A DNA stretch of 64,000 bases from the NCBI GenBank assembly GCA_047602405.1, contig JASGHJ010000002.1, positions 3,680,001 to 3,744,000 of the forward strand. Direction: 5' to 3'. Made by a program: the position numbers and the translations under genes. Below, piece by piece: positions 32,260 to 61,700 of the stretch (positions are counted from its first letter, which is position 1; each line of letters starts with the position of its first letter). Source of the stretch: Anaeromyxobacteraceae bacterium (GTDB taxonomy: Bacteria > Myxococcota > Myxococcia > Myxococcales > Anaeromyxobacteraceae). The notes below the pieces were generated by a model. It made no database searches, was not told where the DNA came from, and was given only the letters and a program-made list of their open reading frames with translations.

Positions 32260-32263
<4 letters not shown>
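30635..32263 (+). CDS. Hypothetical lipoprotein heading an ABC transporter operon
   Basis: Lipobox LAGC; translationally coupled to the ABC ATPase. Confidence 0.75.
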
Positions 32264-32933
<670 letters not shown>

Positions 32934-32937
<4 letters not shown>

Positions 32938-34211: not shown

Positions 34212-34217
34212 GTTCCA

Positions 34218-34264
34218 GGGGGCGCTCAGCGCGCCCCCTCCCCGGCGAGGCGGCTCGCCGGGGC
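34218..34264. terminator. Tandem GC hairpins between convergent genes
   Basis: GGGGGCGC..GCGCCCCC and CCCCGGCGAG..CTCGCCGGGG; no U-tract. Confidence 0.4.
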
Positions 34265-34287
34265 CCCTCCCCTGGCAGCGGGTCGCC

Positions 34288-35889: not shown

Positions 35890-35910
35890 CGGTCCTCGAC
35901 TCGACTCTGC

Positions 35911-35939
35911 ATCGTACTTGGGACGGGCCCTGCCGCCAA
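35911..35939 (-). promoter_or_regulatory. Putative sigma70 promoter for mltD (TTGGCG-N17-TACGAT)
   Basis: Seen on the minus strand with a 17-bp spacer. Confidence 0.5.
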
Positions 35940-36185
35940 ATCCTTCGCCCGTTCGCCCGCTTGGCCGCATTCGACCGGCCGTCCGCCCGCCGCCCGGGCC
36001 GCCTTGCCGCGCGCCCAGGCCAACCTGTGCACGGGGTGGGCCCGCCCGGCAGGCCCCGAACCCGGCGAGACCACCGGGCGTTGCGGCGGCACGGCCGCCC
36101 TCTTACCAGGTACCCCCCGACCCTGGGGTCCATTCCCGGGGTTTCACCTTTCTCCCCCGGACGAGCAGCGCCCGGTGTAGACGAC

Positions 36186-38050: not shown

Positions 38051-38170
38051 CGGTCGCGCAGGTTCCCATGTCACTTCCGGCCGCGCCCCGCCTCCGGGAA
38101 CGGGCCGCCGCGATCGTTGTTGAGAAGCTGGGGCGCCGCTAAGCTGCCTCACCCCGGAGGGAACCGCCGC

Positions 38171-42098: not shown

Positions 42099-43172
42099 AT
42101 GACGCCCCCAGGCCCCACCCTCCCCATCCCCTTCCTCGGCTACGCCGCCCGGCTCGCCGAGCCCCGCGCGCTGTGGCTGCTCGCGGCGGTGGCCGGCGTC
42201 GCGACGCTCGGGGCGTGGGGCGTGTGGCGCCGGCGGCGCGCGCTCGCCGCCGCGGCGGGCGCGCTCGCGCCCCGGATCGCGCCCGGGGCGAACGTCACGC
42301 GCCCGGCGGCCCGGCTCGGCCTCTCGGTCACCGGCCTCGCGCTCCTCGCGCTCGCGCTCGCCCGCCCGCAGTGCGGCTCCCGCACCGAGATCGCCCGCCG
42401 CTACGGCGCCGACCTCGTGGTGGTGCTCGACGCGTCGCGCTCGATGACCGCGCGCGACGTGAAGCCGGACCGGCTCGCCCGCGCGAAGCTCGAGCTCTCC
42501 GACCTCCTCGACCGGCTCGCCGGCGACCGGGTCGCGCTCGTCGCCTTCGCGGGCTCCGCGTTCGTGCAGTGCCCGCTCACCACCGACTACGCCGCCGCGA
42601 AGCTCTTCCTGCGCACGGTCGACCCCGAGCTCCTCCCGCAGCAGGGCACCGCGCTCGGCCCTGCGCTGCTCGCCGCGCGCGACGCGCTCGTCGCCGGCGA
42701 CCGCGCCGCGGCGCGCGCGAAGCTGGTGCTCGTGGTGTCCGACGGCGAGGACCAGGAGGGCGGCGTCGACGCCGCCGCGCGCGAGCTCGCAGAGGCGGGC
42801 ATCGTCGTGCACGCGCTCGCGATCGGCACCCGGGAGGGCGCGCCGATCCCGGTCGCGGGCGAGGACGGGGGCGTCCAGGCCTACAAGAAGGACCGCGCCG
42901 GCAACACGGTCGTGACCCGGCTCGACGACGCGTCGCTGGCCGCGGTCGTGGCGGCGGGCGGCGGACAGGTGTTCGAGCTCGGCGCACCCGGGCGCGGCGT
43001 GGACGCCTTCCGCGCGGAGCTCGACAAGGTGGCGAAGAGCGAGCTCGAGAGCCGGCTCACCGTCGTGTACGAGGACCGCTACGCGGTCGCGGCCTTCCCG
43101 GCGTTCCTGCTCCTCCTCGGGGCCCTGCTCGTGCGCGAGCGCGGCCGGACACCGGACGAGGAGGCCGCGTGA
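42099..43172 (+). CDS. batB: vWA-domain protein BatB
   Basis: LARPQ, DASRSM.A.DV.P.RL, PLTTDY, QGT, SDGED and G.PIP. Confidence 0.88.
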   Translation: MTPPGPTLPIPFLGYAARLAEPRALWLLAAVAGVATLGAWGVWRRRRALAAAAGALAPRIAPGANVTRPAARLGLSVTGLALLALALARPQCGSRTEIARRYGADLVVVLDASRSMTARDVKPDRLARAKLELSDLLDRLAGDRVALVAFAGSAFVQCPLTTDYAAAKLFLRTVDPELLPQQGTALGPALLAARDALVAGDRAAARAKLVLVVSDGEDQEGGVDAAARELAEAGIVVHALAIGTREGAPIPVAGEDGGVQAYKKDRAGNTVVTRLDDASLAAVVAAGGGQVFELGAPGRGVDAFRAELDKVAKSELESRLTVVYEDRYAVAAFPAFLLLLGALLVRERGRTPDEEAA

Positions 43173-43939
43173 CCGCGTTCGCCGCCGTCCTCGCGCTCGC
43201 GCTCGCCTTCTCGCCGCTCAAGGCGGAGGAAGAGAACGTCCGCGCGGGGAACGAGAAGCTCGTCGCGGGGGACCCGAAGGCCGCGCTCGAGCGCTACGAC
43301 GCCGCGGAGAAGAAGGTCGGCGCCCACCCGGAGATCGAGTACGACCGCGGCCACGCGGCCTACCGGGCCGGGCGGCTCGACGAGGCGGTCGAGCGGTTCA
43401 GGAAGGCCGCCGAGCAGGCGCCGGCGCCGCTCGCGTCCCGCGCGCTCCAGAACGCGGGCAACGCGCTCGCCGCGAAGGGTGACGAGCCCGGCGCGCTCGG
43501 CGCGTACCGCGACGCGCTCCGGAAGGATCCGGCCAACGAGGACGCGCGCTACGACCTCGAGGTGCTGCTCCGGCGGAAGGAGCAGCCTCCGCCGCCGAAG
43601 AGCGGGAAGGACCAGGACAAGGAGGGCCCGGCCCCGAAGCAGCAGCAGGGCGAGGGACAGCAGCAGGGGAAGCCCCCGCCGAAGCCCGACGACCAGGGGA
43701 AGGAGCAGCAGAAGCAGAGCCCGCAGCGCGAAGGTGAGCAGCAGGAGCCGCAGGGCGGGGAGCAGCAGCAGAAGCAGCCCCGGCCCGCGGAGGAGCGGCA
43801 GGGTGAGCGGGCGGGATCGCTCTCGAAGCAGGACGCGGAGCGGCTGCTCGACGCGCTCCGGGCGCGGGAGAAGAAGCTGCCGCAGGATCCGCGGCGGGGA
43901 AGGAGCTCGGGGAGGACGGATGTCGAACGGGACTGGTGA
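43169..43939 (+). CDS. batC: TPR protein with Q/E/K-rich tail, BatC-like
   Basis: TPR repeats, low-complexity tail and AERLLDAL...RDW terminus. Confidence 0.78.
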   Translation: MTAFAAVLALALAFSPLKAEEENVRAGNEKLVAGDPKAALERYDAAEKKVGAHPEIEYDRGHAAYRAGRLDEAVERFRKAAEQAPAPLASRALQNAGNALAAKGDEPGALGAYRDALRKDPANEDARYDLEVLLRRKEQPPPPKSGKDQDKEGPAPKQQQGEGQQQGKPPPKPDDQGKEQQKQSPQREGEQQEPQGGEQQQKQPRPAEERQGERAGSLSKQDAERLLDALRAREKKLPQDPRRGRSSGRTDVERDW

Positions 43940-45827
43940 GCGGGGCTGGTCCGGCGGATCGGGCCCGGGGTGCGCCTCGGCCGGGAGCCGGGCGTGGCCG
44001 CGCGCGCTCCGCGCGGTGGCCGCGGTCGCCCTCCTCGCCGCGCCGGCGCTCGCCGCCGCGCAGGCGCGCGTGACCGCGACGCTCGACGCCGCGGAGATCG
44101 CGCTCGACGAGACGGTCACGCTCACGGTGGTCGTGCAGTCCTCCGACGCGCCGCAGGACCTCCAGTTCCCGAAGGACATGCCGTTCACCGTGCTCGGGCG
44201 CAGCCAGTCGTCCGGCTCCTCGTTCTCGCTCGGCGGCGGCGCCGGCGTGCAGATCTCGCGGACGCTCACGCTCGTGCTGCAGCTCGCGCCGAAGCAGGCC
44301 GGCCGGCTCACCATCCCGCCGATCGCCGCCATCGTGGGCGGGAGGCGCTACGCGTCGGAGCCGGTCACGCTCGACGTCCTGCCGGAGGGGCAGCGCCCGA
44401 AGGCGCAGCCCGGCCCCTCGCTGCCGCAGCGGCTGCCGGGCCCGCCCGGCCCGCGCGGCGGCGGGACCTGGCGCGGCTGGGAGCGGGACCTCCGGCTCGC
44501 GGTCGAGGCCGACCGGACCGAGGTGTGGCTCGGCGAGCAGGTGGTGGTCTCGGCCTGGTTCGTCTCTCCGGTGCCGATCGTGAACGTCGAGAACTGGAAG
44601 GAACCGCAGTTCGTCGGGTTCTGGAAGGAGCTCCTCGACTCGCCGCACCGGCTCGAGGAGCAGGTGCGGGTCATCGACGGCGTCCCGCTGCGCACGTACC
44701 TCGTGAGCCGCTTCGCGCTCGTGCCGACGCGGTCGGGCGAGCTCACGGTCGATCCGTACCAGGCGCTCGTGAAGGTGCAGGCCGGGGTGAGCTCGCCGTT
44801 CGATCCGTTCCCGGACCTGCGGAGCGCCCGGCTGAAGAGCCAGCCGATCACCGTCAAGGTGCGGCCGCTCCCCGCCGGCGCGCCGCCCGGCTTCGCGAGC
44901 GTGAACGTGGGGACGCTGTCGCTCGAGGCGGCGGCCTCCGACGCGGCCGTGCCGGCCGGGCAGCCCGTGACGATCCGGGTGACCGCGAGGGGCGACGGGA
45001 ACGTGCGGGCGCTCGCGCTGCCGCCGGTGCCCGAGCTGCCCGGGACGCGGCGGTTCGAGCCGACGCAGTCGGAGAAGGTGACGACGAAGGGCGGCCGGCT
45101 CGGCGGGGCGCGGACCGTGGAGACCGTGATCGTGCCGGAGCGGGAGGGGGAGCTCGTGGTGCCCGCGCTGAGCTGGCCCGTGTTCGACCCCGCGCGGGGC
45201 GCCTACCAGACCCTCCGGACCGAGCCGATCCACATCTCCGTGAGTCCTGCAGGTGCGGTCGCGGCCCAGACGCCCATCGCAGGGGCGAACGCGCTCGGCG
45301 CCGGGCTCCGGCCGATCCGGGCGGACGGGAGCGACCTCACCCGGACCTCGCCGCCGCCGTGGCGCAGCCCCCTCTTCGTGGCCGCGCTGGCGCTGCCGGT
45401 GCTGGGCTTCGCCGGCCTGGGCCTCGGTCTACGACTCAGGGAGCATCAGGCCGCCGGCGCCGGCGCCCGCCGCACCCGGGCCGCCGGCCGGAACGCGCGG
45501 CGCCGCCTCGCCGCCGCGCGCAGGGCGCTCGGCCGCGGCGACCGTGAGTCGTTCTTCGCGGAGGTGGAGCGCGCCCTGACCGGCTACTGCGCCGACCGGC
45601 TGCGCGTCCCCGTCGGGGGACTCACCCGTGAGGCCCTCGGGAGGACTCTCGGTGGTGCAGGTGCGCACGGGCCAGCCGTGCAGGCGCTCGACGACGCGCT
45701 CGGGGCCTGCGACGCCGCGAGGTACGGGCGCGTCGGAGTGGGCGCCGAGGAGGCGCTGCTCGGCCAGGCAGAGCAGGCGATCGCGCTGCTCGACGAGGTG
45801 GACTGGTCTTCGGGGAGGGCGGCGTGA
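43920..45827 (+). CDS. batD: BatD-family protein
   Basis: GGAGG RBS; repeated Ig-like units (G.LTIPP, G.GN, FDP..GAY) and a C-terminal TM. Confidence 0.85.
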   Translation: MSNGTGERGWSGGSGPGCASAGSRAWPRALRAVAAVALLAAPALAAAQARVTATLDAAEIALDETVTLTVVVQSSDAPQDLQFPKDMPFTVLGRSQSSGSSFSLGGGAGVQISRTLTLVLQLAPKQAGRLTIPPIAAIVGGRRYASEPVTLDVLPEGQRPKAQPGPSLPQRLPGPPGPRGGGTWRGWERDLRLAVEADRTEVWLGEQVVVSAWFVSPVPIVNVENWKEPQFVGFWKELLDSPHRLEEQVRVIDGVPLRTYLVSRFALVPTRSGELTVDPYQALVKVQAGVSSPFDPFPDLRSARLKSQPITVKVRPLPAGAPPGFASVNVGTLSLEAAASDAAVPAGQPVTIRVTARGDGNVRALALPPVPELPGTRRFEPTQSEKVTTKGGRLGGARTVETVIVPEREGELVVPALSWPVFDPARGAYQTLRTEPIHISVSPAGAVAAQTPIAGANALGAGLRPIRADGSDLTRTSPPPWRSPLFVAALALPVLGFAGLGLGLRLREHQAAGAGARRTRAAGRNARRRLAAARRALGRGDRESFFAEVERALTGYCADRLRVPVGGLTREALGRTLGGAGAHGPAVQALDDALGACDAARYGRVGVGAEEALLGQAEQAIALLDEVDWSSGRAA

Positions 45828-46573
45828 ACCTCGCCATGCTCCTCGTGGCCTCCGTCACCTCCGCGGTGCAGCCGCAGCTGGAGGCGTCCGGGCCACCGGC
45901 CGCCCGCTTCGCGGCCGCCGCCGACGCCTACCTGGCCGGCGACTTCGGCACGGCCGAACGACTCTGGGACGCGCTCGTCTCCGAGGGGTATACGAGCGCG
46001 TCGCTCCACCTGAACCTGGGGAATGCGCGGCTGCGCGCGGGCCGGAGGGGCACGGCGATCGCCAGCTACGTCCGGGCGCTCCGGCTCGACCCGGGCGACC
46101 CCGACGCGCGCCACAACCTCGAGCTCGCCCGCGCGGCCAACGTCGACCGCCTGGTCGGGGGCACGGGACCGTCGCTCCTCGACCGCGTGGCCTCACGGAC
46201 GCCGAACGTCGCCGCCGCGCTCGCGTTCGCGGTGCCCTGGTGGCTGCTCTGGACGTGCCTGAGCGGCCGGCTCGTGACGGGGAGGCGCGCGCGCACCTGG
46301 CTCGGCGCGGGCGCGGCGCTCGCCACGCTCGGCGCGATCCTGGGCGGCTCGATCCTGCTCGCGCGTGACGCCGAGCAGCGCGAGGCGACCGCGATCGTGA
46401 TCGCACCCTCGACCGGCGTTCGCGAGGGCCCCGAGGAGGCGCTCCGCGCCACGACGATGCTGCACGAGGGGACCGAGCTGCGGGTCCTCGAGGCGCGCGG
46501 CCCTTCGGTGCGCGTGAAGCTCGTGAACGGGCTCGAGGGCTGGGTGTCGGCCCGCGACCTCGAGGCGATCTAG
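45824..46573 (+). CDS. batE: TPR plus SH3 protein, BatE-like
   Basis: NLGNA, ARHNL, TM segments and LHEGTE...GLEGWV. Confidence 0.82.
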   Translation: MNLAMLLVASVTSAVQPQLEASGPPAARFAAAADAYLAGDFGTAERLWDALVSEGYTSASLHLNLGNARLRAGRRGTAIASYVRALRLDPGDPDARHNLELARAANVDRLVGGTGPSLLDRVASRTPNVAAALAFAVPWWLLWTCLSGRLVTGRRARTWLGAGAALATLGAILGGSILLARDAEQREATAIVIAPSTGVREGPEEALRATTMLHEGTELRVLEARGPSVRVKLVNGLEGWVSARDLEAI

Positions 46574-46574
46574 T

Positions 46575-47468
46575 TCAGCCCGCGGGCGCACACTGGAACC
46601 CGAGCTGCACGCGCAGCTTGTAGGTCCCGGCCGGGAACGCGGTGGTGCGCAGGCCTCCCAGGAACAGGGCGAGGGCCGCCGCGTACTCCTGCCGGAAGAC
46701 GCGCAGGCGCACGAGCGCGTCGTGCCAGAGCTTGCCGTCGGTGGAGGCCGCCCGCTGCATGGACTGGCGCGGCTTCTCCTCCCCCGTGGCGCGGTCTCCC
46801 GGCTCCTGGGCCAGGACGGCCTTCAGGCCCAGGAACTTCTCGCCGGACTTTCTCACCGCCTCGATGGCCACCCGCTCGTGCTCGCGGATGCCCTTCTCGA
46901 GTGCCCGGCGAAAGTCTGCGGGCTCCTGTCCGGGCGGGACCGTGAAGGTGAGCGTCGCGCGGTCGGGCAGGGGCCCCGCCCGGCGGAAGAAGATCGGCGG
47001 GCGCTCGAAGACCATCCCCTTCCGGCCGATCGCCTCCGGGGCGGACCAGAGCCCGGGCCAGCGCTTGCTCCGCGGGATGAGCTTTGCCGCCGCCGGGTTC
47101 GCGAGCGCGTACGCGCCGTGCCCTGTGACCGCGGCCGCGTCCATGAGGTCGACCGACTGGTAGCCACCGCTCGGGAAGACGTTCTCGGAGCGGCCCCAGA
47201 GCTTGTTGAGGAAGCGGGCCAGCGTCGAGTTGAACTCCTGCATGAACGCGGGGAGCTCGCCCTTCGGGTCGGTGAGGACGAGGTGGTAGTGATTCGAGAG
47301 CACGCACGCGACGTGAAGCAGGATGCCGTGGCGCTCCGCCATGACGGCGAGCAGGAAGCCGAAGACCTGCCGCACCTCGGGGGTGGGCTTGAAGTAGAAG
47401 CGCCGCTCGAGACATCGATGCGTGATGAAGTGGGTGGTGCCCGGGAGCACCTGGCGTGGGGCCGTCAT
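46575..47468 (-). mobile_element. Solitary HUH/Y1 tyrosine transposase, RAYT-like (IS200/IS605 superfamily)
   Basis: HFITHRC, LSNHYHLV (HUH), FMQ, catalytic Y..NP (AYALANP) and W.G; no tnpB next to it. Confidence 0.85.
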
Positions 47469-47482
47469 GGCCTCGCGCCATG

Positions 47483-47498
47483 AGCACGCGGCGTGCCG
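47483..47498 (-). promoter_or_regulatory. Putative sigma54 (-24/-12) promoter of the transposase
   Basis: Minus strand CGGCACGCCGCGTGCT = GG-N10-GC with a GGCAC..TGC match, 14 bp before the ATG. Confidence 0.55.
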
Positions 47499-47612
47499 CA
47501 CGGAAACCGCTGCGGCCCAGCGACCCTCCTCCGAGCGGGGCGTCCGCGCCGCGGACCATGCGGACGCCCCGCGGACCTCTCGGTCCGCGAACGGGACTCT
47601 CGGGCGAGTCGC

Positions 47613-48980
47613 TCAGGCCACGCGCAGCTTCGCGATGAGCGCGGGCGGACCGCCGGACCGGAAGGCCTCGAGCGCCTCGTCCGCGGGCGACCGCCCGGAC
47701 TCGGCGCGCGCGCGGAGCGGCTCGAGGAACTTGCACTCGTCCTCGCCGCTGGCGGCGCAGCAGCTCTGCCGGCGCAGGCCGTCGGCCGCGGCGGCGAGCA
47801 CCTCCCCGGCGAGCGCCTGCAGCGAGCTCCCGTCCGCCGCCCGCCCCTGCAACCCGCTCCGCCCCGCGGCGTCCATGAGCGCGCGCCGCTCCTCGACCTT
47901 GAACCGCGCCACGGCCTGCCAGGCCCGCTCGCGCGCGGCCTGGTCGTAGAGGATGCCCTTCCACAGCGCGAGCAGCGCGCGGGCGTGGGCGTGGTCGCAG
48001 CCGTCGGCGGCGCGCACCTCCACGACGCCCTTCACCCGGACCTCCGGGAAGACGACCGTGAGGTGATCCTCCCAGTCGCTCTGGGTCGGCCGCTCGCCGT
48101 CGATGCCGCGGAGCATGAAGTCCCGGAACGTCGCGCCCTTCGGGTCGAGGTAGCGGTCGTGGCGCCGCACGAAGATCATCGGGACGTCGAGCGCCCACTC
48201 GACGTACGCGCGGTAAGGATCGTCGAGGAAGCCGGGCGCGAAGGCGAAGGCGAGGAGCCCGCAGCGGGCCGGATCGGTCTCGTTCCAGACCGCCGTCCGG
48301 TAGGACTTCCACCCCACCTCGCGGCCGTCGATGATCGGCGAGTTGGCGAAGAGGGCGACCACCGCGGGCTGCACGGCGAGGGCGGTCCGCAGCTTCTCCC
48401 CCATGTCGCGCGCGTCCGAGAAGTCGAACGACGCCTGCGCCGACGCGGTCATCGCCATCATGTCCTCGCCGAGCCGGCCGTGCGCGGCCAGCCAGGGGCG
48501 CATGATCTTGTAGCGATCCTTCGGCATCCAGGGGTTCGACCGGGGCGTGCCGAAGGGCCGGTAGCCGGTGGCGAGGAGCTCGACCGAGAGTTCTTCGCCG
48601 ATGTGCGCGCAGTGGTCCTCGAGGTGCTCGCGCAGCTCCTCCGCGGCCGCGTGGACGTCCGGGAACGGACGGCCGGACAGCTCGAGCTGGCCCCCCGGCT
48701 CGAGCGAGACCGTGAGTCCTTCTCGCTGCGCCGCGATGATCCGGTCCTCTTCCATGAACGGCGTGAAGCCGAAGCGCCCGAAGCCCCTCAGCATCGCGGC
48801 GACGCCGGCAGGGCCCTCCCAGGCGACCGGGTCGGTCGTGCCCGAGCGCATGAGCACGACCTCGTGCTCCAGGCCGACCTTCCAGCCCTGGCGGGGGCGC
48901 TCCCGTGCACGGAACCAGGCGACGAGGTCGTCGGGCCCGCGCACCGGCGGGGTCTCACGCGTGCGGGCGTCGAGGGACAT
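47613..48980 (-). CDS. gshA: Glutamate--cysteine ligase (GCS2/plant-like GshA)
   Basis: VGLEHE, SLEPGGQLELSG, WMPK.RY, FANSP, HLT.VFPEVR.K and EVRAAD. Confidence 0.93.
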   Translation of the reverse strand: MSLDARTRETPPVRGPDDLVAWFRARERPRQGWKVGLEHEVVLMRSGTTDPVAWEGPAGVAAMLRGFGRFGFTPFMEEDRIIAAQREGLTVSLEPGGQLELSGRPFPDVHAAAEELREHLEDHCAHIGEELSVELLATGYRPFGTPRSNPWMPKDRYKIMRPWLAAHGRLGEDMMAMTASAQASFDFSDARDMGEKLRTALAVQPAVVALFANSPIIDGREVGWKSYRTAVWNETDPARCGLLAFAFAPGFLDDPYRAYVEWALDVPMIFVRRHDRYLDPKGATFRDFMLRGIDGERPTQSDWEDHLTVVFPEVRVKGVVEVRAADGCDHAHARALLALWKGILYDQAARERAWQAVARFKVEERRALMDAAGRSGLQGRAADGSSLQALAGEVLAAAADGLRRQSCCAASGEDECKFLEPLRARAESGRSPADEALEAFRSGGPPALIAKLRVA

Positions 48981-49085
48981 GGGGACGCGGAATCTACCCG
49001 CGGGTGACGCGCTCCGCCACGGGCATGTCCGGGGTGCCCGTGCGTTCTACCCTTGAACGACTCTGGGACCTACGAGGCGATCCGG

Positions 49086-49114
49086 TTGCACGCCCCCCGG
49101 ACGCCGCCTATCCT
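49086..49114 (+). promoter_or_regulatory. Putative sigma70 promoter of the S41 peptidase (TTGCAC-N17-TATCCT)
   Basis: Directly visible, with a 17-bp spacer. Confidence 0.55.
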
Positions 49115-49191
49115 GAGCTTTTTCGGGGATTTCTCGCCCCTTGGACGTCCGAGAGTCGTTCGCCGCGCCTCCACCCCCGCAAAGAGCCACC

Positions 49192-52100
49192 ATGACCCGC
49201 CCGTTCCGGCCCCTCGCCACCATCGCCCTCGTCGCCGCGCTCGCGCTCGGCACGGGCGCGCACCTCGTCCGCGCCGAGGCGCGGCAGGAGGAGGACCGCG
49301 GGCGCACCGCCGCGGAGCTCGCCTACCGGGAGAAGGTCCCGTCCCAGGCCCGCCCCGACGCGGCGGGCGAGTACAAGCTCGACAAGCTCCAGATCCTCTC
49401 GAAGGTGATCCTGTCTCTCAAGGACTCCTACGTCGACCCGACCCGCATCGATCCGAAGGCGATGGTCGTCTCGGCGCTCGAGATGGTCGAGAAGACCGTC
49501 GCCGAGGTGATGGTCCAGGGCGACGCGAAGTCGTCGAAGCTCGTCCTCACCGTCGGCTCCGCGAGCCGCGAGCTCGACATCTCGGGCGTCGACTCCATCT
49601 GGAAGATCCGCACCGTGCTCGGCGACGCGATGGGCTTCATCCAGGAGCACCTCGTCGCGCACGACGACCTCCGGCAGATCGAGTACGCCGCCGTGAACGG
49701 CATGCTCTCGACGCTCGACCCGCACACCATCCTGCTCGAGCCGAAGGCCTACAAGGACATGAAGACCCAGACCCGCGGCGAGTTCGGCGGGCTCGGCTTC
49801 GTCATCGGCATGCGCGACGGCAACCTCACCGTGATGCGCGTGCTGCGCGGCACGCCCGCCCAGAAGGCGGGCATCAAGGCGAAGGACGTCATCACCAAGA
49901 TCGAGGAGCAGTCCACCGCCGAGATGGACGTGAACGACGCGGTCGACCGCCTCCGCGGGAAGCCCCGCACGCCGGTCGCGATCACCATCGCCCGCAACGC
50001 ACAGGACGCGAAGCGCCTCACGCTCGTCCGGGAGATGATCAGAATCGACACCGTCCCGCAGGCGAAGCTCCTCGAGGGCAACGTGGGCTACCTGAAGCTC
50101 ACCGGCTTCTCGGCGAACTCCCGCGCCGACGTCGAGCGCGTCGTCCAGGAGGAGCGCCAGCAGGCGGGCGGCAAGCTCGCCGGCCTCGTCCTCGACCTGC
50201 GCGGCAACCCAGGCGGCCTGCTCGAGCAGGCGGTCCAGGTCTCGGACCTCTTCCTCTCCTCCGGCACGATCGTGAAGACCGTCGGCGGCGGCCGCACCCT
50301 CGAGCTCAAGGAGGCGAGCGCCGACTCCGACGACCTCGCGAACCTCCCGCTCGTCGTGCTCGTCAACAACGGGTCGGCGTCCGCGAGCGAGAATCGTGGC
50401 GGGCGCGCTCAAGAACAACGGCCGCGCCCTCGTCATCGGCCGCCAGACCTTCGGCAAGGGCTCGGTGCAGGTGCTGCAGGACTTCGCCGAGCCGGGTCGC
50501 CCGGGCGAGGAGGCGGCGCTCAAGCTCACCATCGCGCAGTACCTCACCCCGGGCGACGTCTCGATCCAGGAGGTCGGCGTCACCCCCGACGTGCTGCTCC
50601 TCCCCGGCCGCGCGCTCAAGGAGCAGGTGAACTTCTTCGCCCCGCCCCGCTCGATGGGCGAGGTCGACCTCGACCGCCACCTCTCGAACCCGTCGCAGCG
50701 CGACGAGGAGCAGGAGCGCGCCGAGGCCCGCAAGCGCCGCGTCGAGAAGTCGGCGCTCGAGCTCCGCTACCTGCTCGACGAGAAGGAGGACTCGGTCGCG
50801 AAGGCGCTCAAGAAGGCCGCCACCGAGGACGCCGCCGAGAACGCCCACACCGATCTCACGCCCGAGCAGGTCGAGGACGAGGAGGCCGACGCCGACCCCG
50901 ACCGCGTGGTGGAGGACTACCAGATCAGGTTCGCGCGCGACCTCCTGCTCAAGGCCCCGTACAACGATCGCGCGCGCATGCTCGAGGGCGCGAAGACGCT
51001 CGTCGCCGAGCGCCACGAGGACGAGGAGCGGCGCCTGGAGGCCCGGCTCAAGGACATGGGCCTCGACTGGTCCGAGCCCGCGAAGACGCCCGCCGGCGCT
51101 CCGAAGGCCGTCGTCACCTTCTCTCCGCCGGCGGCGAAGGACGCGCGTGCGGGCGAGGTCTACCCGTGGACGGTGACCGTCGAGAACCGGGGCGACGCGC
51201 CGTTCCGGCGCCTGCGCGCCTGGACCTCCGCCGAGAAGAACCCGCTGCTCGATCGCCGCGAGTTCATCTTCGGCACCGTCCGCCCGGGTGAGCGCCGCTC
51301 GTGGACCGTGCCCGTGCGCATGCCCCGCAGCCTCGACAGCCGCCGCGACGAGGTGTCCCTCCGGCTCGAGGACGACTCCGGGAAGCCCATCCCGGAGGTC
51401 GCGACCTCGGTCGGCGCGGTCGAGATCCCGAAGCCGCAGTTCGCGTTCAGCGTGCAGGTCGAGGACGCCGCGGGCGGGAACGGCGACGGCCTCGCGCAGC
51501 GCGGCGAGACCTTCGCGTTCCGCGTCGACGTCCGGAACGCCGGCTCCGGCGCCTCCGGCCGCAAGACCTACGTCGCGCTCCGCAGCCTCGGGGACGACAA
51601 GCTCTTCGTGAAGAAGGGCCGCGAGGTCATCGGGACGCTGAAGCCTGGCGAGGCGAAGACCGCCCGCCTCGAGGTCGAGCTGCGCAAGGGCTCGCACGCC
51701 GAGAACGTGCCGTTCCGGCTCGCCATCGTGGACGAGAAGACCGACGAGTACCTCGTCGACAAGATCGAGTGGCCGGTCGCGAAGGACGCGACGCCGCGCA
51801 CGCCCGCCTCGGGCGCCGTCCGGCTCGACGCCGACGTCACCATCCACGGCGGGGCCTCCGAGACCTCGCCGGCCGTCGCGTCCGCGAAGAAGGGCGCCGT
51901 GCTGCCCGTCGACGCCCGCTTCGGCGACGCGTACCGGGTCGAGTGGCAGAAGGGCCGTTTCGGGTTCGTGCCGGTCGCGCAGGCGAAGCCGGTGAAGGCG
52001 CCCCGCTCCGGCGCGGTCGCGATGGCCTGGCAGCGCGAGCCGCCGCGCATCGCGCTCGCGCCTGACCCGGCGAAGGGCGCGCCCGTCGTCGAGGGCGACA

Positions 52101-52405
52101 CGATGAAGCTCTCCGGCTCCGCCACGGTGCCGGCCTCGGCGGACGACTCGACGCGGCTCCGGGACGTCTTCATCTACGTGAACGACCAGAAGGTCTTCTT
52201 CCGGGTCGTGCCGGACGAGAAGGCCTCCACCCGCCTCGACTTCCAGGCCGACCTGCCGCTCAAGCCCGGGCAGAACACGGTGACCGTCGTGGCCCGCGAG
52301 GACGAGGAGTTCCAGACTCGCCGCTCGCTCGTGGTGTTCCGGCGCGCCCCGCCGGCCGTCGCGCAGGACGGCTCGCGCGAGCCGCCCAAGGCGCAGGCGC
52401 AGTAG
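49192..52405 (+). CDS. S41/CtpA-family carboxyl-terminal protease (PDZ, peptidase, Ig-like and SH3-like tail); one extra base at ~50392-50393
   Basis: LDPH, GEFGGLG, DLRGNPGGLL and SASASE in one frame, then IVAGAL, TFGKGSVQ and KLTIAQY in the next; removing one A from GAGAATC joins them. Confidence 0.9.
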
Positions 52406-52418
52406 GCGCAGCCCGAAA

Positions 52419-52480
52419 ACGACGCACGGACCCAGGGAAGGCGCGGCGCTCCGCCCCCTCCGGGGAGTCCGTGCGCTCGT
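52419..52480 (-). terminator. Long hairpin between the peptidase and the repeat array; the short U-tract is on the minus strand
   Basis: ACGA-CGCACGGAC (52419-52431) pairs with GTCCGTGCG-C-TCGT (52467-52480); AAAA at 52416-52419 on the + strand. Confidence 0.45.
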
Positions 52481-52484
52481 CCTG

Positions 52485-52638
52485 ACGACTCTCGGTCGTC
52501 CAACATGAACGACTCTCGGTCGTGCAGCTCGCCTGACGACTCTCGGTCGTCGAAGGTCGACGACTCTCGGTCGTCGAAGGTCGGCGAACGACTCTCGGTC
52601 GTCCAAGGGCCGGGGGGCCCGGAACGACTCTCGGTCGT
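52485..52638. repeat. Array of six identical 15-bp palindromes ACGACTCTCGGTCGT with 9-21 bp spacers
   Basis: Copies start at 52485, 52509, 52536, 52560, 52588 and 52624. Confidence 0.95.
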
Positions 52639-52792
52639 CGAGGAGTGCCCGGAACCCCCCGCCGTGATCCGGCCGATACCGCCCGACACCGCCCTGGCGA
52701 GCGTGCGCTCGGCAGGTGGTATCGGCGACCTGCCTCACTCGCCCGTCCCCAAGTTCGCGAAGCGCCGGATCGCCCGGTAGAATTCCGCTCGC

Positions 52793-55700
52793 ATGGCGGA
52801 GGCTCCGAAGACCGCCTCCGTCCCATCCTCCACCTCCGGGAAGAGGACAGGGTCGGGGTTCGAGCTGCGCCTCGAGCGCGGGACGGCACACGTGCGCCTC
52901 GCGCGCGTGCCGGTCGTCGACGGCCTCGAGCTCGAGGTGCTCGACCTGCTCGTCCCGGACGTCCGCTTCCCCTTCGACGTCGCCGCGGGCTCCGGGCAGT
53001 TCCGGCACCGACTCTCGGACCTCGACGAGCTCGGCGTCGCCGCCGCGCCCGAGCTCGCGGAGCGCACGGTCGCCGCCGCGGGCCCGGAGGCGCTCGGGCT
53101 CCTCGACCTCCGGATCGCGTTCCGGGACGGCTTCGCCGAGCTCGCCGGCCGGCTCGCGGGCGGCACCCGCTTCACGCTCCGCGCCGGGCTCGTCCCCGCC
53201 GGCGACCGCGGCGTCGCGGTCGTCCTCCACGCCCCGCGCCTCTACGGCCCGGCCGCCCTCCCCGAGGGCGCCCTCGTGCACGCCGGCCGCCGCCTCCTCG
53301 CGGCGCTCGGCGAGGACGCCTTGCCCGAGGATCCCGTCTCCCGGCTCCTGCGCCGCGTGCTCGCGCCGCGCGGCTGGAAGATCCCGCGCGCCGTCGACGT
53401 CCGGCTCGCGCGCGCCGAGATCGTCGCGGGCGCCGCGCGGCTCGGCTGGTCGCGCGCGGCCGTGCCCGCGGCCGTCTCCGCCGACCCGGACCTCCTCGCG
53501 GCCGAGGAGGGCGCCCGCACCTTCGCCGCCGCCGAGGCGCTCCTCGAGCGCGGCGACCACGAGGCCGCCCGCGAGGCGTACCTCGCGACGCCCGCCGCGG
53601 CCGGCCACCCGTTCGCCGCCGAGCGGCTCCTGGGCCTGCTCGCGCTCGACGACCGCTTCCACGACGAGGCCCTCGACCTCGCCCAGGCCTGGCTCGCGCG
53701 CCGCCCCGGCTTCCCGGCCGCGCTCGGCGCCGAGGCCGCGGTGCGCATCGCCCGCGGCGAGGAAGCCCGCGCCGCCCGCGCCCTCGCGGAGCTCGCGGAG
53801 GGCGCCGCCGCACGCGGCGAGGTCTTCTCCGCGCTCGCCGCCGCCGAGACCGCGTTCGGCCTCACCGGCGCGGACGCCGCCGTCGCGCGGCGCGCCGCCG
53901 AGGTCGCCCTGCAGGTCCGCCGCGACCACGTCCCCGCCCTGCGCGCGCTGCGCGACCTCGCCCTCGCCGCCGGCGACCGCGAGGCGCTCGTGCGCGCGAG
54001 CCGCCGGCTCGTGGCGTACGACGCGGACCCCGCCCACAAGGCCCGCGCCCACGCCCAGCTCGGCGAGCTCCTCCTCGGCACCGACCCCGCCGCGGCGCGC
54101 CTCCACCTGGACCAGGCGCTCCGCCACGCGCCCGACGAGCCCCAGACCCTGCGCTCGCTCGCCCGCGCCTGCGAGGCGGCCGGCGAGCACCTCCGCGCGG
54201 TGCGCGCGCTCGACCGGCTCCGCGAGCTGCACCTCGCCCACGGCGACCGCGCGCTCGCGGCCGGCGCCGCCTACGAGGCCGGCGCGCTCTGGGACGGCCC
54301 GCTCGACCACGCCGAGAACGCGCTGCTCCGCTTCCGCGAGGCGGCGGAGCTCGCGCCCTCCGCCGAGGCCCACGAGCGCGCCGCCGGCGCCGCCACCCGC
54401 GCCGGCCAGTGGGCCGAGGCCGCCGACCACCACGCCGCGGTCCTCGCCGCGCTCGCCCGCGGGGCGCCCGGCCCGGCCGGCCTCGCCGCGCGCACCCGCG
54501 TCGCCCTCGCGGCGATCGCCGAGGAGCGCCTCGCCGACCTCCCCGCCGCGGCGGCCCACCTCGAGGCTGCGGTCGCGCTCGAGCCCGACCGCGGGGACCT
54601 GTGGCGCCGGCTCGCCGCCCTCGATCGCACCCTCGGCCGCACCGCCGCCCTCGCCGCCGCGCTGGAGCGCGTCGCCGCCCTCTCGCCGGACCTCGCCGAG
54701 CGGGCCGCCGCGCTCGCCGAGGCCGGCGAGGCCGCGCTCGCCCTCGGGCTCCCCGCCGAGGCGCGCGGCCGGTTCGTCGCGGCGCTCGCCGCCGACGAGC
54801 GGAACCGCACCGCCCTCGACGGCCTCGCGCAGCTCGCAGCCGCGCGCGGCGACGCCGCCGCCGAGCGCGACGCCCTCGCCCGCCTCCTGCCGCTCGCCGC
54901 CTCCGCCGACGAGACCGCCACCCTCCAGGACCGGCTCGCCGAGGCCTGCGAGAAGGTCGGGGACCTCGCCGGCGCGCAGCGCGCCCTCGCCGCCGCGCGC
55001 GCCGCCGCGCCGACCGCGGCCCGCCTCGAGGCCTCGCTCCGCCACGCCCGCCGCACCGGCGACGTGCCCGCCCACGCCGCGCTCCTCGCCGAGCGCGCCG
55101 CCGCCGCCGCGGCCCGCGGCGACGCGGCGCTCGCCACGACGAGCTGGCTCGAGCGGGCCCGCCTCCTCGGAGCGACCGATCCCGCCCAGGCCCAGGCGGC
55201 GCTCGCCGAGGCCCGCGCCGCCGCGCCGGGCGATCCCGAGGTGCTCCGGGCCCAGGCCGCCTTCGGCGAGGCGAACCGCGAGCCCCGGCTCGCGCTCGGC
55301 GCGCTGCGCGCGCTCCTCGCCCAGGATCCCGCCGACGCCTCCGAGCTCGAGGTCCGCGCCGGCCGCGCGGCGCTCACCGCCGGCGAGCCGACCGCCGCCC
55401 GCGAGCACGCCGAGCGCGCCCTCGGGCGCGACGCGCCCGGCGCCGGCGAGCTCCTCGCCGACATCCTCGACCGCACCGGCGACGAGGCCGGCCGCGCCGA
55501 GCTGCTCGAGCGGATCGGCCGTCCCCTCGAGGCCGCCCGCCTCCACGAGCGCCACGGTGACCGGCCCCGTGCCATCGCCGCCCTCGAGCGCGCCGCCGCC
55601 GACCCCGCCTCGGCCTCCGAGGCCCTCGGGCTGCTCGCGGAGCTCCGCCTCGCCGAGGGAGACCGCCGCGGCGCCGCCACCGCGCTCCTCGCGCTCGCGG

Positions 55701-58700
55701 CCCGCACGCCCGGCCGCGCCGGCGCGCGCCTCGCGCTGCGCGCCTTCGAGGCCGGCGGCGACGCCTCCCGGGCGCTCGACCTCGCCACCGAGCGCGACCC
55801 GACCTTCGCCCCTGCCCGCGCCCGCCGCGCCGCCCTCCGGGCCGACGACCCGCGCGGCGCGCTCGCCGACGCCGAGGCCGCGCTCGCGGGCGACGAGCTG
55901 CCCCCCGCCGAGCGGATCGGCCTCGTCGCGATCGCCGCCCGCGCCGCCGAGGCACTCGGCGACGACGACCGCGCCGGCGCGCACCTCGCCACCCTCGCGC
56001 GGGCCACCCCGGACGACGCCTCGGTCCTCCGCCGCCTCGCGGCCCTCGAGCGCCGCGCCGGGCGCGCCGAGGCGCTCGCCGCCACGCTCGAGCGGCTCGT
56101 CCCCTTCGCGACGCCCGCCGAGGGCGTCGCGCTCCGGCTCGAGCGCTCCGAGCTCCTGGCCGCCTCCGACCCGGCCCGCGCCGCCGCGCTCGCCGAGGAG
56201 GCCCTCGCCCTCGACCCCGACTCGACCCCCGCGCTCGCGGCCCTCGCGTGGCCGCCGCGGTCCGCCGGGAGCCCGCCCGCCGTTCGCGCCGACCGGCTCG
56301 GCCGCCTCGCCGCCCGGCCCGACGTCCCCGCCGCCGAGGCCGCCCGGGCCCACGGCGAGCGCGCGCGGCTCCTCGCCGGGCTCGGCGACGCCGCGGGCGC
56401 GCTCGAGGCCGTCCGCGCCGCCACCGCCGCGGGCGCCGTCGAGGACGAGCTCACGCACGCGCTCCGCGCCGACCTCGCCCGCCGCACCGGGGATCGCGCC
56501 GAGGAGGCGCGGGCCCTGCTCGCGCTCGCGCACGCGGCCCGTCGGCGCGGCGAGCCCACCGCCGGCGAGCGCCTCGCCGAGGCCGGCCTCGCCGCCCGCG
56601 CGGCCGGCGTCGACGGCGCCGAGGACGCGCTCCTCGCCGCGCGCACGGCCGGCGTCGAGAAGGAGACCGCCCGGCCGGTGCTCGAGGCGCTCGTCGAGCT
56701 CGCCCGCGCCCGCGGCGACGGCGCCGCGGAGCGCGAGGCCCTCGCCGCCCTCGTGCCCCACCTGCCCACCGGCGCGCGCCCCGAGGTGCTCGTCCGGGTG
56801 GCCCGCCTGGCGCTCGAGGCCGGCGACGCCGCCTTCGCCCGGGCGGCCGCCGACGAGGCGCGCACGCTCGCGCCGCGCGACCCCGTCGCCGTCGAGTGCG
56901 CGCGCGCCGCCGCCGCCGCGGAGGGCGACCACGCCGCGGTCGCCGAGCGCCTCGACGAGCTCGCCGCCCTCGAGCCGGCGACGGCCGGCGCCCGCCAGCT
57001 CGAGCGCGCCCGCCTGCTCGCCGCCCTCGGCCGCGCGGAGGACGCCGACCGCGCCTTCGAGGCCGCCCTCGCCGCGCTCGCCCCCGACCGCGCGCTCGCC
57101 GACGAGCAGGTCCGGCACCGCCGCGCCGCCGGCCTCGCCGACCCGGGCGCGCCGCTCGAGGCCTTCGCCCGCCGCGCCGGGGAGCCCCGCGTCGCCGCCC
57201 GCGCCCTCCGCACCGCCGCGGCCCTCGCGCTCGAGGCCGGCGACTGGGACGCCGCGCTCCGGCGCGCCCGCCGCACCGCGGCCCGCACCCAGGACGATCC
57301 TTGCTTCGCGGGCCCGCTCCTCGCGCGCATCCTCTACCTGCGGGGCTCCGCCGCCGAGGCGCTCGTGCTCCACCGGCGCCTCCTCGACGCGCCCGAGGGC
57401 GCGCTCGCCCCGGAGGACCGGGTCGCGGTCCTCTCCCAGGCCGCCGAGCTCGCCGAGGATCTCGGCGACCGCGAGCTCGCCGCGTCCGCGCTGACCCGCC
57501 TCCTCGCGCTGCGCCCCGCCGACGTCGACGCCGCCGGGCGGCGCTTCGCGGTCGACCCCGACCGCCGCCGCGCCATCGAGGGGCTCGCCGCCGCGGCCGA
57601 CCGCACCCGCAACCTGCACCGCCGCGTCGCCGCGCTCCAGAAGGCCGGCGAGGCCGCCCTCACCGAGCTCGAGGACCGCGCCCTCGCGGACCGGCTCCTC
57701 CGCCGCGCCCGCGCCGAGGCCGAGGTCGACCCGGCCCTCGCCGCCCGCACCGCCCGCGAGCGCGCGGCGGTCGTGCGCGCCGCGCTCGGCGTCGGCTCCG
57801 ACGCGTTCCTCGACGCCCTCGAGGAGTCCGCCGCCGCGGTCCAGGCGACCGGCGACCGCGCCGGCGCCCGCGCCCTCTACGCCGAGACGGCCGCCCTCCT
57901 GCGCGAGCGCGGCCAGCTCGCCGACGCCGCCCGCCTCCTCCTCCAGCTCGACGCGCTCGCCGCCGCCGACGGCGACTTCGACGGCTCCGCCGCGTACGCG
58001 CGCGAGGCGGGCCTCGCGCTCCGCGACGCCGGCCGCGCCGGCGAGGCCGCCGAGGTCCTGCGCCGCGTCGTGGCGACGAACCCGGGCGACGCCGAGGCGT
58101 TCGCGGCCCTCGAGGAGCTCCTCGCCTCCGGCGGCGACGCCGGCTCCCTCGTCGAGCTCCTCTCGCTCGCCGCGGCGAGCGCCGCGCCCGGCCCGGACCG
58201 CGCCGCGCTCCTCGTGCGGCTCGCCGAGGTCCACGCCCGCGCGGACGACCGGGTCGCCGAGGAGGGCGCGCTCCGCTCGGCCCGCGAGCAGGTGCCCGGC
58301 CACGCGGTCGCGACCGAGCGCCTGCAGGCGCTCCTCGCCGCCGAGGAGCGGTTCGGCGAGCAGGCCGAGCTCCTCCTCGAGCGCGCCGCGGCGGAGCCCT
58401 CCGCCCGCGCCGCGCTCCGCAGGGAGGCCGCGGCGCTCTACTCGCGCTCGGCCGATCCCGGCGAGCGGGCCCGCGGCCTCGACCTCCTCGTGGAGGCCGC
58501 CCGCGAGAACCCCGAGGATCTCGACGCGCTCCGCGAGGCCTCCCGCGCGCTCGTGGCCGCGGGCAGGCGCGAGGAGGCGGTGCCGTTCCTCTCGGCCATC
58601 GTGCTCGCCAACCCGGACGACGAGGCCGCCGCCGCGCTCCTCGCCGACGCCTGGGCCGACCGCCCGCTCGAGCAGGCCGGCCTCTTCCTCTCCCGCGCCG

Positions 58701-61700
58701 CCGCCGCGAAGGGCGAGCTGCGCGCCTTCCGCCTCGGCGAGGCCGCGAAGGCGCTCGCCCGCGCCGGCGAGGAGGGCCGCGCCCGGGAGACCCGGCTCCT
58801 CGCGTTCGAGGCCTGGCCCTCCGACACCGCCGGGTTCACCGCCGCGCTCCGCGAGGCCGCCGGCGACGCCGACCGGCTCGACCGCGTCCTCGCCGCCCGC
58901 GCCCGCGGCGTGCCCGCCGAGGCCGCCGCCTGCCACCGCGCCCGCGCCGACGCGCTCGTCGCGGTGGGCGCGCTCGAGCGCGCCGCGACCGCCTACGAGG
59001 AGGCGCTCGTCGCCGCCCCGGACGACCCGGTCCTGCTCGCCGCGCTCGCCGCCACGCTCGCGGCCGCCCGCGGCGACGCCGCCGCCTCCGACGCCGACCA
59101 CCGCCTCGTCGCGCTCTCGGACGCGAAGCCGGGCAGCGTGCCCCCGTCCGCGGAGTCGGCCTCCCGCTTCCGCCTCGGCATCGCCGCCTGGGCCGACGGC
59201 CGCCCCGCCGACGCCATCGGCGACCTCGAGCGCGCCCTCCTCCTCACGCCCTCCGATCCGCGCGCCGGCTCGGCCTGGACCGCGCTCGCCGACGGCCACG
59301 CCGCCCTCGGCCACGGCGAGGCCGCCCTCGCCGCCGCCCGCGGGCGGGCCGACCGCGCCGTCGCGCTCGGACTCGGCCCCGAGCGGCGCCTGGCCCTCGA
59401 GGCCGGCGCCGCGCTCGCGGCCCGCTTCGCCGACGAGGGGCCCGACGCCGCCGAGGTCCTCGACGCGCTCCTCGCGGTGCGGGTGCAGGCGGGCGATCCG
59501 CCCGAGGAGCTCGGCGAGCTCGCCCGCCGCGCGGCCGCCGCGCTCGAGCTCGCCGGCCAGCCGGTCCGGGCGAAGGTCGCCCTCGCCCGCGCCGGCCTCA
59601 CCGCCTCGGGCCCGCTCGCGGCGCCCGCCGTCCCGGCGGAGCTCGAGGTCGAGGTCGAGCCGCCCGCGCCCGCCGCCCCGGCCGCCCAGACCGCCCCGGA
59701 GCCCCTCGCCGCTTCGGCGCCGCCGGCCGCCGCCTTCGGCGCGGGCCGCGTGCAGGAGGCCGGCGAGCGCGCCCTCGCGGCGACCGAGCCGGCCGAGCGC
59801 GCCACCCGCTTCGTGGAGCTCGCCGAGGAGCTCCACCGCGCCGCCGCGCCGGACGAGGAGATCCGCTCGGCGCTCGACCTTGCCGCCGACGCCGACCCCG
59901 ACGCCCCCGGCCCGTGGCGCGCCCGCGCCCGCATCGAGGGGGAGCTCGGCGACTCGGAGGCCGCCGCGCGCGCGCACCTCGCCGTCGCGATCCGCGCCGA
60001 GGGCGAGGAGGCCACCGCCGCCGCGCTCGAGGCCGCCCGGCTCTTCGCCGAGGCGGGCGACCACGTCGACGCCGCGCGCGCCTTCCGCGCCGCCCACCAC
60101 GCCGCCCCGGAGGCCGTGCCGGTCGCGCTCGCCGAGTCCGAGGAGGCGCTCGCCGCCGGCGACGCCGCCGCGGCCGCCGAGAAGGCCCTCTCGGTGCCGC
60201 TCGAGGTGCTCCCGCCGGTCGCCCGCTCCGGCCACCTCCGCCGCCTCGCGCAGGCGCTCGACGAGGCCGGCCGCATGACGTCCTCCGACGCCGTCTACGC
60301 CGACCTCTTCCGCGAGGACCCGGCGGACGCCGTCGCCTTCACCCGCGCCGCGGACCGCGCCTTCGAGCGCGGCGGCGCCGACGCCTGGCTCGAGGCCGCC
60401 GCGACGCACGAGGCCGCCCTCGGCAGCTGGGGCGACGCCGATCGCCGCCGCGACCTGCGCTACGCCCGCGGCGAGGTGCTCGCCGCGGCCGGCCGCCTCG
60501 AGGAGGCCCGCGCCGCCTACCTCGGCGCGCTCGAGCTCGACCCCACCCACGAGCCGACCCAGACCTCGCTCGCGGCGCTCGACGCCCGCACCGACGACTG
60601 GGCCGCGCTCGCCGCCCGCGTCGCCCGGGAGGCCGCCGACGCCGGGACCGGCGACGCCGCCGGCCTGCACCTGCGCGTCGCGCGCATCCTGCACGACCGG
60701 CTCGACGACGGGGCCGGCGCGATCCTCTCCTACCGCGCCGCCGTCGAGGCCGCGCGCGAGAGCCCCGCCCCCGCCGCGCGCCGCGTCCAGGAGGAGGCCG
60801 AGGCCGCCCTCCACGCGCTCGGCGCGCCGATGAAGGCCGCCGAGCCGGCGGCCCTCGACGACTCCGAGCCCACCGCCGAACACCTGCTCGAGGCGCCCGA
60901 GGGTGACCCGGTGGCCGAGGTGCTGCGCGCCCAGGCCGACGAGGCGACCGGCGTCGCCCGCGCCGAGCTCCTCGAGCGCCTCGCCGGCCACCTCGAGCGC
61001 GCCGGCGACCGCGCCGGGGCCGCCGACACGCTCCTCCTCGCGCTCGCCGCCGACCCGCACCGCGAGCTGACCCACGCCTGGCTCTCCGGCCTCGTCGAGG
61101 ACGACCCCGAGCGCCTGGAGCGCGCCCGCGCCCTGCGCGCCGAGGCCGGCCTGCCCGAGGAGCGCGAGGAGCGCTCGACCGGAGACTTCCCGCCGGTCTT
61201 CCGGACCGACCGGACCACCGGAGACTTCACGGCCCCCGACCCCGAGGTCGAGGGCCGGGAGACGAGGACGACCGGAGACTTCCCGCCGGCGGAGGGAGGG
61301 GCGGATTCGGATCCGGAGACGGTTCCGGAGACGGATTCGGATTCGGAGACGGATTCGGAGACGGATTCGGAGACGGATTCGGAGACGGAATCGGAGACGG
61401 ATTCGGAGACGGAGACGGAGACGGATTCGGCCACGGATACGGATCCGGAAACGACTGCCGCAGCGGTTTCGGATGCCGCCCCGGACCCCACTCCCACGCC
61501 CGAGCGCTCCACCCTCGACGACTTCCCGGAGTCCGCGCTGGAGGAGGCGCTCGCGGCAGGGCTCAGCCGGTCGGCGAGGCCGAGCCCGTCTCCGATTCCG
61601 ATTCCGTCTCCGATTCCGTCTCCGATTCCGTCTCCGTCTCCGTCTCCGATTCCGTCTCCGTCTCCGTCTCCGATTCCGCCTCCGTCTCCGATTCCGCCTC

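Follow-up and report, generated by a model that had tools for sequence, protein, structure and literature searches.

An inverted repeat bracketing an S41 peptidase gene in Anaeromyxobacteraceae carries the terminal repeat motif of an HUH-Y1 transposase family

We analysed a 64,000-nucleotide stretch of an Anaeromyxobacteraceae genome (GCA_047602405.1, contig JASGHJ010000002.1, positions 3,680,001 to 3,744,000; hereafter the window), in which an S41 serine peptidase gene stands between the arms of a 28-bp inverted repeat, one arm just upstream of its start codon and the other in a short repeat array downstream. The motif at the heart of both arms is the terminal inverted repeat (TIR) of HUH-Y1, TIRtron-like elements found in the Anaeromyxobacteraceae. 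The arms and the array are probably TIR copies of the HUH-Y1 element next to the peptidase gene, whose enzyme likely deposited and re-copied them locally through nicking and strand exchange on single-stranded DNA. An earlier note on this DNA saw in the repeat a possible regulatory site or the end of a mobile segment; a regulatory switch now appears unlikely, and the repeats are better taken as likely footprints of local DNA rewriting. The source genome (G000) is assembled as 6.16 Mb in two contigs with 74% G+C, and its nearest relative with the same locus is G010, at 96-98% protein identity.

The motif and its transposase family

The core of both arms is GACC[CG]AGAGT, and logos built from the ends of family elements read CCCGACC[CG]AGAGT at both ends. 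Allowing up to two mismatches, a left end is present at all 30 transposase loci and a right end at 24 of them; the TIR lies at about -112 to -136 from the transposase ATG, recurs inverted at about +1050 to +1200, and is often stuttered. The 8-nt core occurs within 1.5 kb of 22/30 transposase loci versus 2/30 S41 loci. Three other genera of the family, whose loci were not used to define the motif, carry the same ends (left in 4/5 loci, right in 4/5), while these ends are found at 0/12 loci outside the family, one of which has a different inverted pair. A relaxed form of the motif is found in 26 of 37 genus genomes among the matches listed, in local clusters, and a reversed control in none. Eighteen stretches near transposases yield 108 hits in 350 kb (2 for the reversed control), and 12 S41 neighbourhoods without a transposase yield one hit in 233 kb. 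Five genomes assembled in one or two contigs permit a test of proximity, in which a distance of 30 kb covers 3-7% of each genome: motif loci at most 30 kb from a transposase gene number 11/13 in G007, 5/8 in G015, 3/4 in G000, and 0/1 in each of G021 and G023.

The transposase gene of the window (46575..47468, minus strand) encodes 297 residues and lies 1.7 kb upstream of the repeat. It gives a weak match to NF047646, and its assignment to the HUH-Y1 (RAYT/TIRYT-like) class follows from structure and alignment. His60-x-His62 and Tyr120-x-x-x-Asn-Pro are intact, the residues H60, H62, Y120, N124 and P125 are invariant across 42 aligned homologues, and Pfam Y1_Tnp matches 37 of these 42 family members. 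The predicted structure (pLDDT 87) matches TnpA-REP (4er8) and IS200/IS605 TnpA over the N-terminal half only; for the last 150 residues the only matches are unnamed Myxococcota clusters. Helix-turn-helix (HTH) models (Bac_DnaA_C, HTH_23, HTH_28) hit 0/42 members at E 0.1, nor is an HTH protein among the Foldseek matches listed for the window transposase model. Homologues occur in 35/37 genus genomes. The left end of the window element (47576..47603, minus strand) comprises a pair of TIR cores, some 110 and 136 nt ahead of the ATG, the same offsets as at the left end of the family. The usual right end is missing because the transposase stop codon directly abuts a batE-like gene; the element has apparently lost it. 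The donor of the local copies may have been this lost right end or another element. A more distant member of the transposase family, L252 (G153:C16:484839-485732), has, at these offsets too, an inverted end pair of another sequence, which suggests that ends and enzyme co-vary.

Several other identities for the motif or its element were considered and rejected. An active insertion sequence does not fit, as 5/5 transposase loci checked are filled in G010, with no empty site between G000 and G010, and an empty batE-gshA junction is met only in distant species such as G014. A miniature inverted-repeat transposable element family was dismissed on inspection of four inward TIR doublets whose interiors are unrelated host DNA. 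These doublets, about 90-100 bp apart, are found in G007 and G015 (L225:12247-12336, L227:6756-6846, L228:16827-16915 and L230:13791-13892). The sites of the motif are not at conserved promoters, as those of a host transcription-factor regulon would be. A parS-like centromere is likewise discarded; the motif moves with transposases, and the canonical parS cluster lies on the other contig (about 1.055 Mb). That cluster comprises five palindromes at G000:C1:1054926-1057517 that we take to be parS-like and presumably a marker of the origin region.

The peptidase leader and the downstream array

The inverted repeat is as the earlier note described it: positions 49138..49165 (plus strand) are the reverse complement of 52582..52609 (minus strand) with a single mismatch in 28 positions, and the whole assembly has no further site within five mismatches of them. 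The left arm is a TIR copy inserted in the S41 leader; the right arm is array copy 5 with its flanks and is without counterpart in G010. Both arms face inwards, as element ends do, and the identity runs past the core on both sides. The leader tract matches array copy 5 at 27/28 positions, the orthologous G010 leader at 25/28, and the other local copies at 18-22/28. Under a profile of 14 other local copies, the probability of at least 27/28 is 3e-5 per copy and 1.8e-4 over six copies, a profile that captures only partly the loose, partial conservation of the flank among copies in other genomes. The best match of copy 5 in G010 is the leader (24/28), and at the three positions that differ between the two leaders copy 5 agrees with G000. 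The leader copy is present in both genomes and copy 5 in G000 only, with no sign of it in any other genome or contig examined (relatives and related contigs of sequencing runs). Since the match exceeds the local consensus and copy 5 is missing in G010, the evidence points to recent copying between the leader site and the array site. On the simplest reading of the comparison with this one relative, the leader was the source of copy 5, which arose in inverted orientation after G000 and G010 split. A search of metagenome contigs with the 19-nt promoter pattern returned two matches, both unrelated, and hence no third lineage to fix the direction.

The array (52485..52638, minus strand) holds six TIR copies at spacings of 24, 27, 24, 28 and 36 with mosaic flanks, and its six exact 15-nt cores are the sole exact copies in the genome. 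G010 has four copies at other spacings, and one downstream copy there echoes the G010 leader variant (21 nt, one mismatch). A decayed seventh copy just past the S41 stop codon (52416..52432, minus strand) is intact in G010 by alignment. When the 15-nt core was compared with genome contigs, the best 80 of 120 stretches were almost all chance matches; one was from Anaeromyxobacter, at the same locus as in G010. Beside the array, a 30-bp stretch in 52672-52730 that G010 lacks repeats the adjoining upstream sequence in inverted form and so makes a fold-back.

The earlier note had placed the upstream copy between a promoter and the ATG, in the mRNA leader. The predicted sigma-70-type promoter (49086..49114, plus strand; -35 at 49086-49091, -10 at 49109-49114) lies outside the inverted repeat, upstream of the ATG at 49192. 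A scan based on the E. coli consensus does not call this pair, but the same -35/17/-10 pattern precedes the S41 orthologue in 19/20 genus loci examined, and on that ground the motif probably lies in the leader. Between -10 and ATG lie 52-63 nt in 18 loci and 77-78 nt in G000 and G010, and the leader motif is present in 1/30 orthologous S41 loci, that of G010 alone. Because the promoter is conserved, the motif is nearly confined to this lineage, and the leader is longer where the motif is present, the leader motif appears to be a lineage-specific insertion behind an old promoter and not a conserved operator. A further TIR copy lies upstream of the promoter (49056..49072, minus strand) and points away from the leader copy, so that two TIR copies flank the promoter.

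The proposal that the leader folds with the same loop as the array is weaker than the note put it. The leader fold is no better than that of shuffled sequences (z -0.63; 57/200 shuffles equally good), and the single mismatch of the leader copy disrupts pair two of the stem. For the array the fold is good (z -4.0), yet in the best structure 4/6 copies form no loop of their own and pair with an adjacent copy. The hairpin is not conserved: of 108 copies taken at other loci, 25 form a stem of 4-5 pairs and 76 one of 1-2 only. Rfam gives no match in the region and one chance-level hit (E 3.3) outside it, and the scan calls neither a promoter nor a terminator on the minus strand of the array.

Copies in host genes and the exchange of short tracts

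The source genome holds 42 nine-base hits, 12 of them within 7 kb of the window transposase and 10 within 7 kb of a homologue at C2:3.486 Mb, where chance would give 0.05 in each stretch of that size; in G010, 10 and 6 of 29 hits form the same two clusters. The 12 copies near the window gene comprise two that flank the S41 promoter, six in the array and four in frame within host genes. Both transposase genes that bear such a halo are without the usual right end, though distant copies also accompany complete, two-ended elements in G007. Independently, G013 has at the same batE-gshA junction a 40%-identical transposase that keeps its right end, and the S41 stop there is followed at once by two copies of that element's end. 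Six places in G013 carry a 15-nt tract in common with the local left end, so the donor is not certain.

Eight of the 16 hits in coding sequence fall within 25 kb of coding DNA near the two halo transposases, where 0.04 are expected, a count based on gene calls made in this analysis. Synonymous-codon shuffles within each gene give a mean of 0.29, and 0/1000 reach eight. At five sites in the batD-like, batE-like, gshA (glutamate-cysteine ligase) and giant TPR-protein (tetratricopeptide repeat) genes the motif is in frame, the alignments are without indel, and orthologues from 4 to 14 other species lack it. Codons at these copies are rare (CGA 1.1%, ACT 0.3%, GAA 1.6%). In the batD-like gene, one copy with two mismatches (45538..45553, plus strand) is perfect in G010, and a core at 45642..45653 (minus strand) occupies the rarest-codon window of that gene. 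The copy in the batE-like gene (45957..45972, minus strand) replaces the residues of the orthologue without indel, and differs from the G013 orthologue at 11/15 bases in one block, with codons of 1-2% frequency. The core in the glutamate-cysteine ligase gene (48580..48594, plus strand, in a gene at 47613-48980 on the minus strand) needed three changes. That in the 5' part of the TPR gene (53008..53019, minus strand), where one silent change suffices, is the weakest case and may be chance. Composition offers a further trace: A+T at silent (four-fold degenerate) sites stands at the 84th-96th percentile in the five genes at 43169-48980 and at the 6th-33rd for 6/7 genes at 32260-40080, being normal 7-15 kb upstream, which suggests a zone of repeated repair. 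Raised silent-site A+T is also seen round the second halo transposase (G000:C2:3482499-3488528), fading with distance.

Four other transposase cassettes sit at the same four loci in G000 (C2:3257133, C2:2524792, C2:582727 and C1:2222263) and in G010 (L219-L222). Their identity is 98.0-98.7% within G000 and 99.4-99.8% within G010, yet 90.8-91.3% between the genomes, orthologous pairs included. This pattern is one of concerted evolution, the elements keeping their places while their content is exchanged. Repeats of 1.2 kb could be homogenised by host recombination too, which makes the pattern supportive and not decisive.

The identity of the motif, its local enrichment, the in-frame replacements and the excess identity of the two arms are direct observations, as are the spacers made longer by copies and the stuttered arrays. 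A mechanism modelled on E. coli TnpA-REP could account for them. The enzyme would bind its end sequence and, the right end of its element being lost, act in cis on nearby end-like DNA, nicking single-stranded DNA in the vicinity and moving a short single-stranded tract (the core and a few flanking bases) between sites. In spacers the products would pile up; in genes only length-neutral, tolerated replacements would survive, with selection removing frame-breaking products. The 28-bp match would be one recent event of this kind, from the leader copy to array copy 5 in inverted orientation, with the peptidase gene a bystander. In vitro, the E. coli enzyme cuts at a distance from the site it binds, carries out strand exchange and is able to build tandem units, according to the text of PMC3333891.

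A broader form of this proposal is possible, though we regard it as doubtful: a resident HUH transposase may act as a local writer that swaps short single-stranded tracts between sites several kilobases apart and overwrites host DNA, including codons, length-neutrally with its end sequence, the same exchange homogenising cassettes at fixed loci. If this broader form is true, the enzyme would be a natural patch editor free of double-strand breaks and would open a new way to alter proteins and to convert genes site-specifically; an enzyme that writes length-neutral patches would matter to the study of genome evolution and could serve for editing. New here are the local in-frame overwriting of host DNA and the homogenisation of four cassettes at fixed loci, for which the mechanism is a proposal. 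The locus offers a defined end sequence, an enzyme intact by sequence, a 28-bp donor-recipient pair and several in-frame scars, making the spread of repeats by RAYT-like enzymes testable.

Several observations weigh against the origin of the repeats from the neighbouring element. The left end of the window element diverges from the array copies beyond the 9-nt core, and the direction of copying depends on a single relative, G010. No halo surrounds the other 5/7 transposase genes of G000. In G021 and G023 the single strict-pattern locus is more than 1 Mb from any transposase. In G000 a lone copy (G000:C1:1978065-1978080), shared with G010, precedes a bfd-bacterioferritin-hemF-like run (gene names from inspection of translations) 243 kb from the nearest transposase. 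One of the 18 transposase stretches (L228, 6 hits) was chosen for its motif hits, and the genomes compared are related, so that counts are not independent. TIRtron transposases have also never been tested biochemically, according to the text of PMC3733652.

Instead of being written by the enzyme in passing, the copies could be selected binding sites of a domesticated transposase, serving local DNA organisation or looping and arising by point mutation, slippage and host gene conversion. The five transposase loci shared with G010 do show vertically kept elements, the leader copy and four coding copies are kept in both genomes, two of the coding sites needed few changes, and host recombination could yield the within-genome identity of the four cassettes. 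We nevertheless hold this unlikely, given the single 11-of-15 block with rare codons at the batE site and the differing number and spacing of array copies in G000 and G010; moreover, 28 bp is short for host homologous recombination. Closer to the earlier note is the thought that the arms are crossover sites of an invertible 3.4-kb segment, a flip of which would switch the peptidase off since the promoter lies outside and the ATG inside, with repeated flips homogenising the arms. The inward arms, the identity on both sides of the core, the promoter just outside the left arm and the downstream echo of the G010 leader variant would all suit it. No inversion was seen, though, in 15 genomes or in the related contigs shown from four sequencing runs. 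The runs listed include none of the source strain and no RNA run; the best DNA runs come from relatives, share 0.18 of the words, and have 145 joints besides those shown. No recombinase is found among 36 neighbouring proteins scanned at a strict E of 1e-15, HUH enzymes act on one strand, and a plain inversion swaps flanks and alone does not make both identical; on balance inversion is quite improbable. What stands of the proposed mobilisable segment is that the motif is a transposon end with arms facing inward, whereas the gene between them is not its cargo.

The array might also act as a sponge RNA or a set of operators for a host factor with a second target in the S41 leader, or as an antisense partner of that leader, in keeping with a copy in the predicted leader, an array that folds well, two copies flanking the promoter and one before bfd-bfr. 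Such roles, which the earlier note had offered as titration target, antisense site or operator, are very improbable. The motif is in 1/30 orthologous leaders despite the conserved promoter, tracks transposases, and lies inside reading frames in both orientations; its stem is not conserved, and the array lacks an Rfam match and a called minus-strand promoter or terminator. A CsrB-like protein-titrating small RNA falls with them, neither hairpin loops nor targets being conserved. Arrays and leader motifs of the present kind can thus mimic sponge RNAs and operators. Least probable by our estimate, and a very remote prospect, is that the identity of the flanks arose falsely in assembly or polishing, around two ordinary copies of the motif. 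The assembly does contain probable single-base errors (at 50392 and in another transposase copy), and copy 5 is in no other genome or contig examined. Against this, the arms are short and inverted, lie 3.4 kb from each other and still differ at one position, and the leader copy has a collinear counterpart in G010; the identity of the motif would be unaffected. The origin of the arms and array from the neighbouring HUH-Y1 element remains the probable account.

Known systems and the peptidase locus

TIR-flanked Y1 transposases were named in 2013 and have never been assayed in the papers found. As described in the text of Di Nocera, De Gregorio and Rocco (2013, PMC3733652), a TIRtron is a tyrosine transposase (TIRYT) gene flanked by TIRs and not by GTAG repetitive extragenic palindromic (REP) sequences; TIR copies occur as singles, dimers and clusters, families are of moderate abundance, and some TIRs, not all, carry a GGGGWSAS motif. 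The present elements share with that description the HUH motif and catalytic tyrosine, the non-GTAG TIR flanks at the level of the family (the window copy has the left end only) and dispersed singles, dimers and clusters, so that the family fits the TIRtron/TIRYT definition at family level. Relative to the same text, the core here differs from GGGGWSAS, to which the outer consensus is loosely similar on the reverse strand only, and copies keep to a few kilobases round certain genes and take the place of host codons in frame. The text and four supplements of PMC3733652 make no mention of Anaeromyxobacter; two further supplements may list myxobacterial elements. From the text of Quentin et al. 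(2018, PMC6006769), TnpA-Y1 class 2, subclass 2.1, is marked by NH[VY]H and Y-x-x-x-NP signatures, a long C-terminal extension, the absence of REP hairpins and delta-proteobacterial prevalence. The present family agrees in all of these, its first signature being NHYH. Because it is without the C-terminal HTH that the text gives for TIRYT members (Bac_DnaA_C, HTH_23 or HTH_28; 0/42 here), we do not assign it to subclass 2.1.

Judged by the texts of PMC3333891 and 10.1101/119735, the likeness to E. coli TnpA-REP with its REPs and BIMEs, and to RAYT-REPIN systems, lies in a resident, vertically kept enzyme, in doublets and locally amplified arrays, and in a 4er8-like fold. There is here no GTAG/GTGG foot and no conserved hairpin (4-5 pairs in 25/108 copies), and the genome has 42 nine-base hits, 22 at two loci, rather than hundreds. 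With foot, hairpin and copy number (as in the text of 10.1101/119735) all differing, identity with REPs or REPINs is rejected. Among the papers listed by our literature search, with subscription journals outside it, there is no description of this family or of in-frame overwriting, and no paper combining 'REP-associated tyrosine transposase' with 'Anaeromyxobacter'.

The bracketed gene (49192..52405, plus strand) belongs to the MXAN_5808 family of S41 serine peptidases, TIGR03900 matching both its halves. It has the divergent glutamate-cysteine ligase gene on one side and the giant TPR-protein gene on the other, and is divergent from gshA in 15/15 genomes compared and co-directional with the TPR gene in all 14 genomes where that gene was found. 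The peptidase gene is in its ancestral place and orientation and so is not cargo. It is an ordinary, syntenically conserved member of TIGR03900 set apart only by the repeats inserted round it and by a frameshift that is probably a sequencing error; within the same reach of the literature, no paper on the MXAN_5808 locus tag was found. A single surplus base at 50392-50393, immediately 3' of the catalytic-serine motif, causes the frameshift and divides the gene. It is probably an assembly error, as the base is missing from G010 and from the contigs of 4/4 sequencing runs. The transposase copy at G000:C2:2524792 is likewise interrupted by an extra base at a site of the same kind, and both are probably long-read errors. 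The S41 orthologue of G001 (G001:C22:729059-732023) is also split, elsewhere in the gene. The giant TPR-rich protein (52793-62431, about 3200 residues), which has low-complexity acidic and Pro-Ser repeats near its end, is conserved 3' of the S41 gene throughout the genus.

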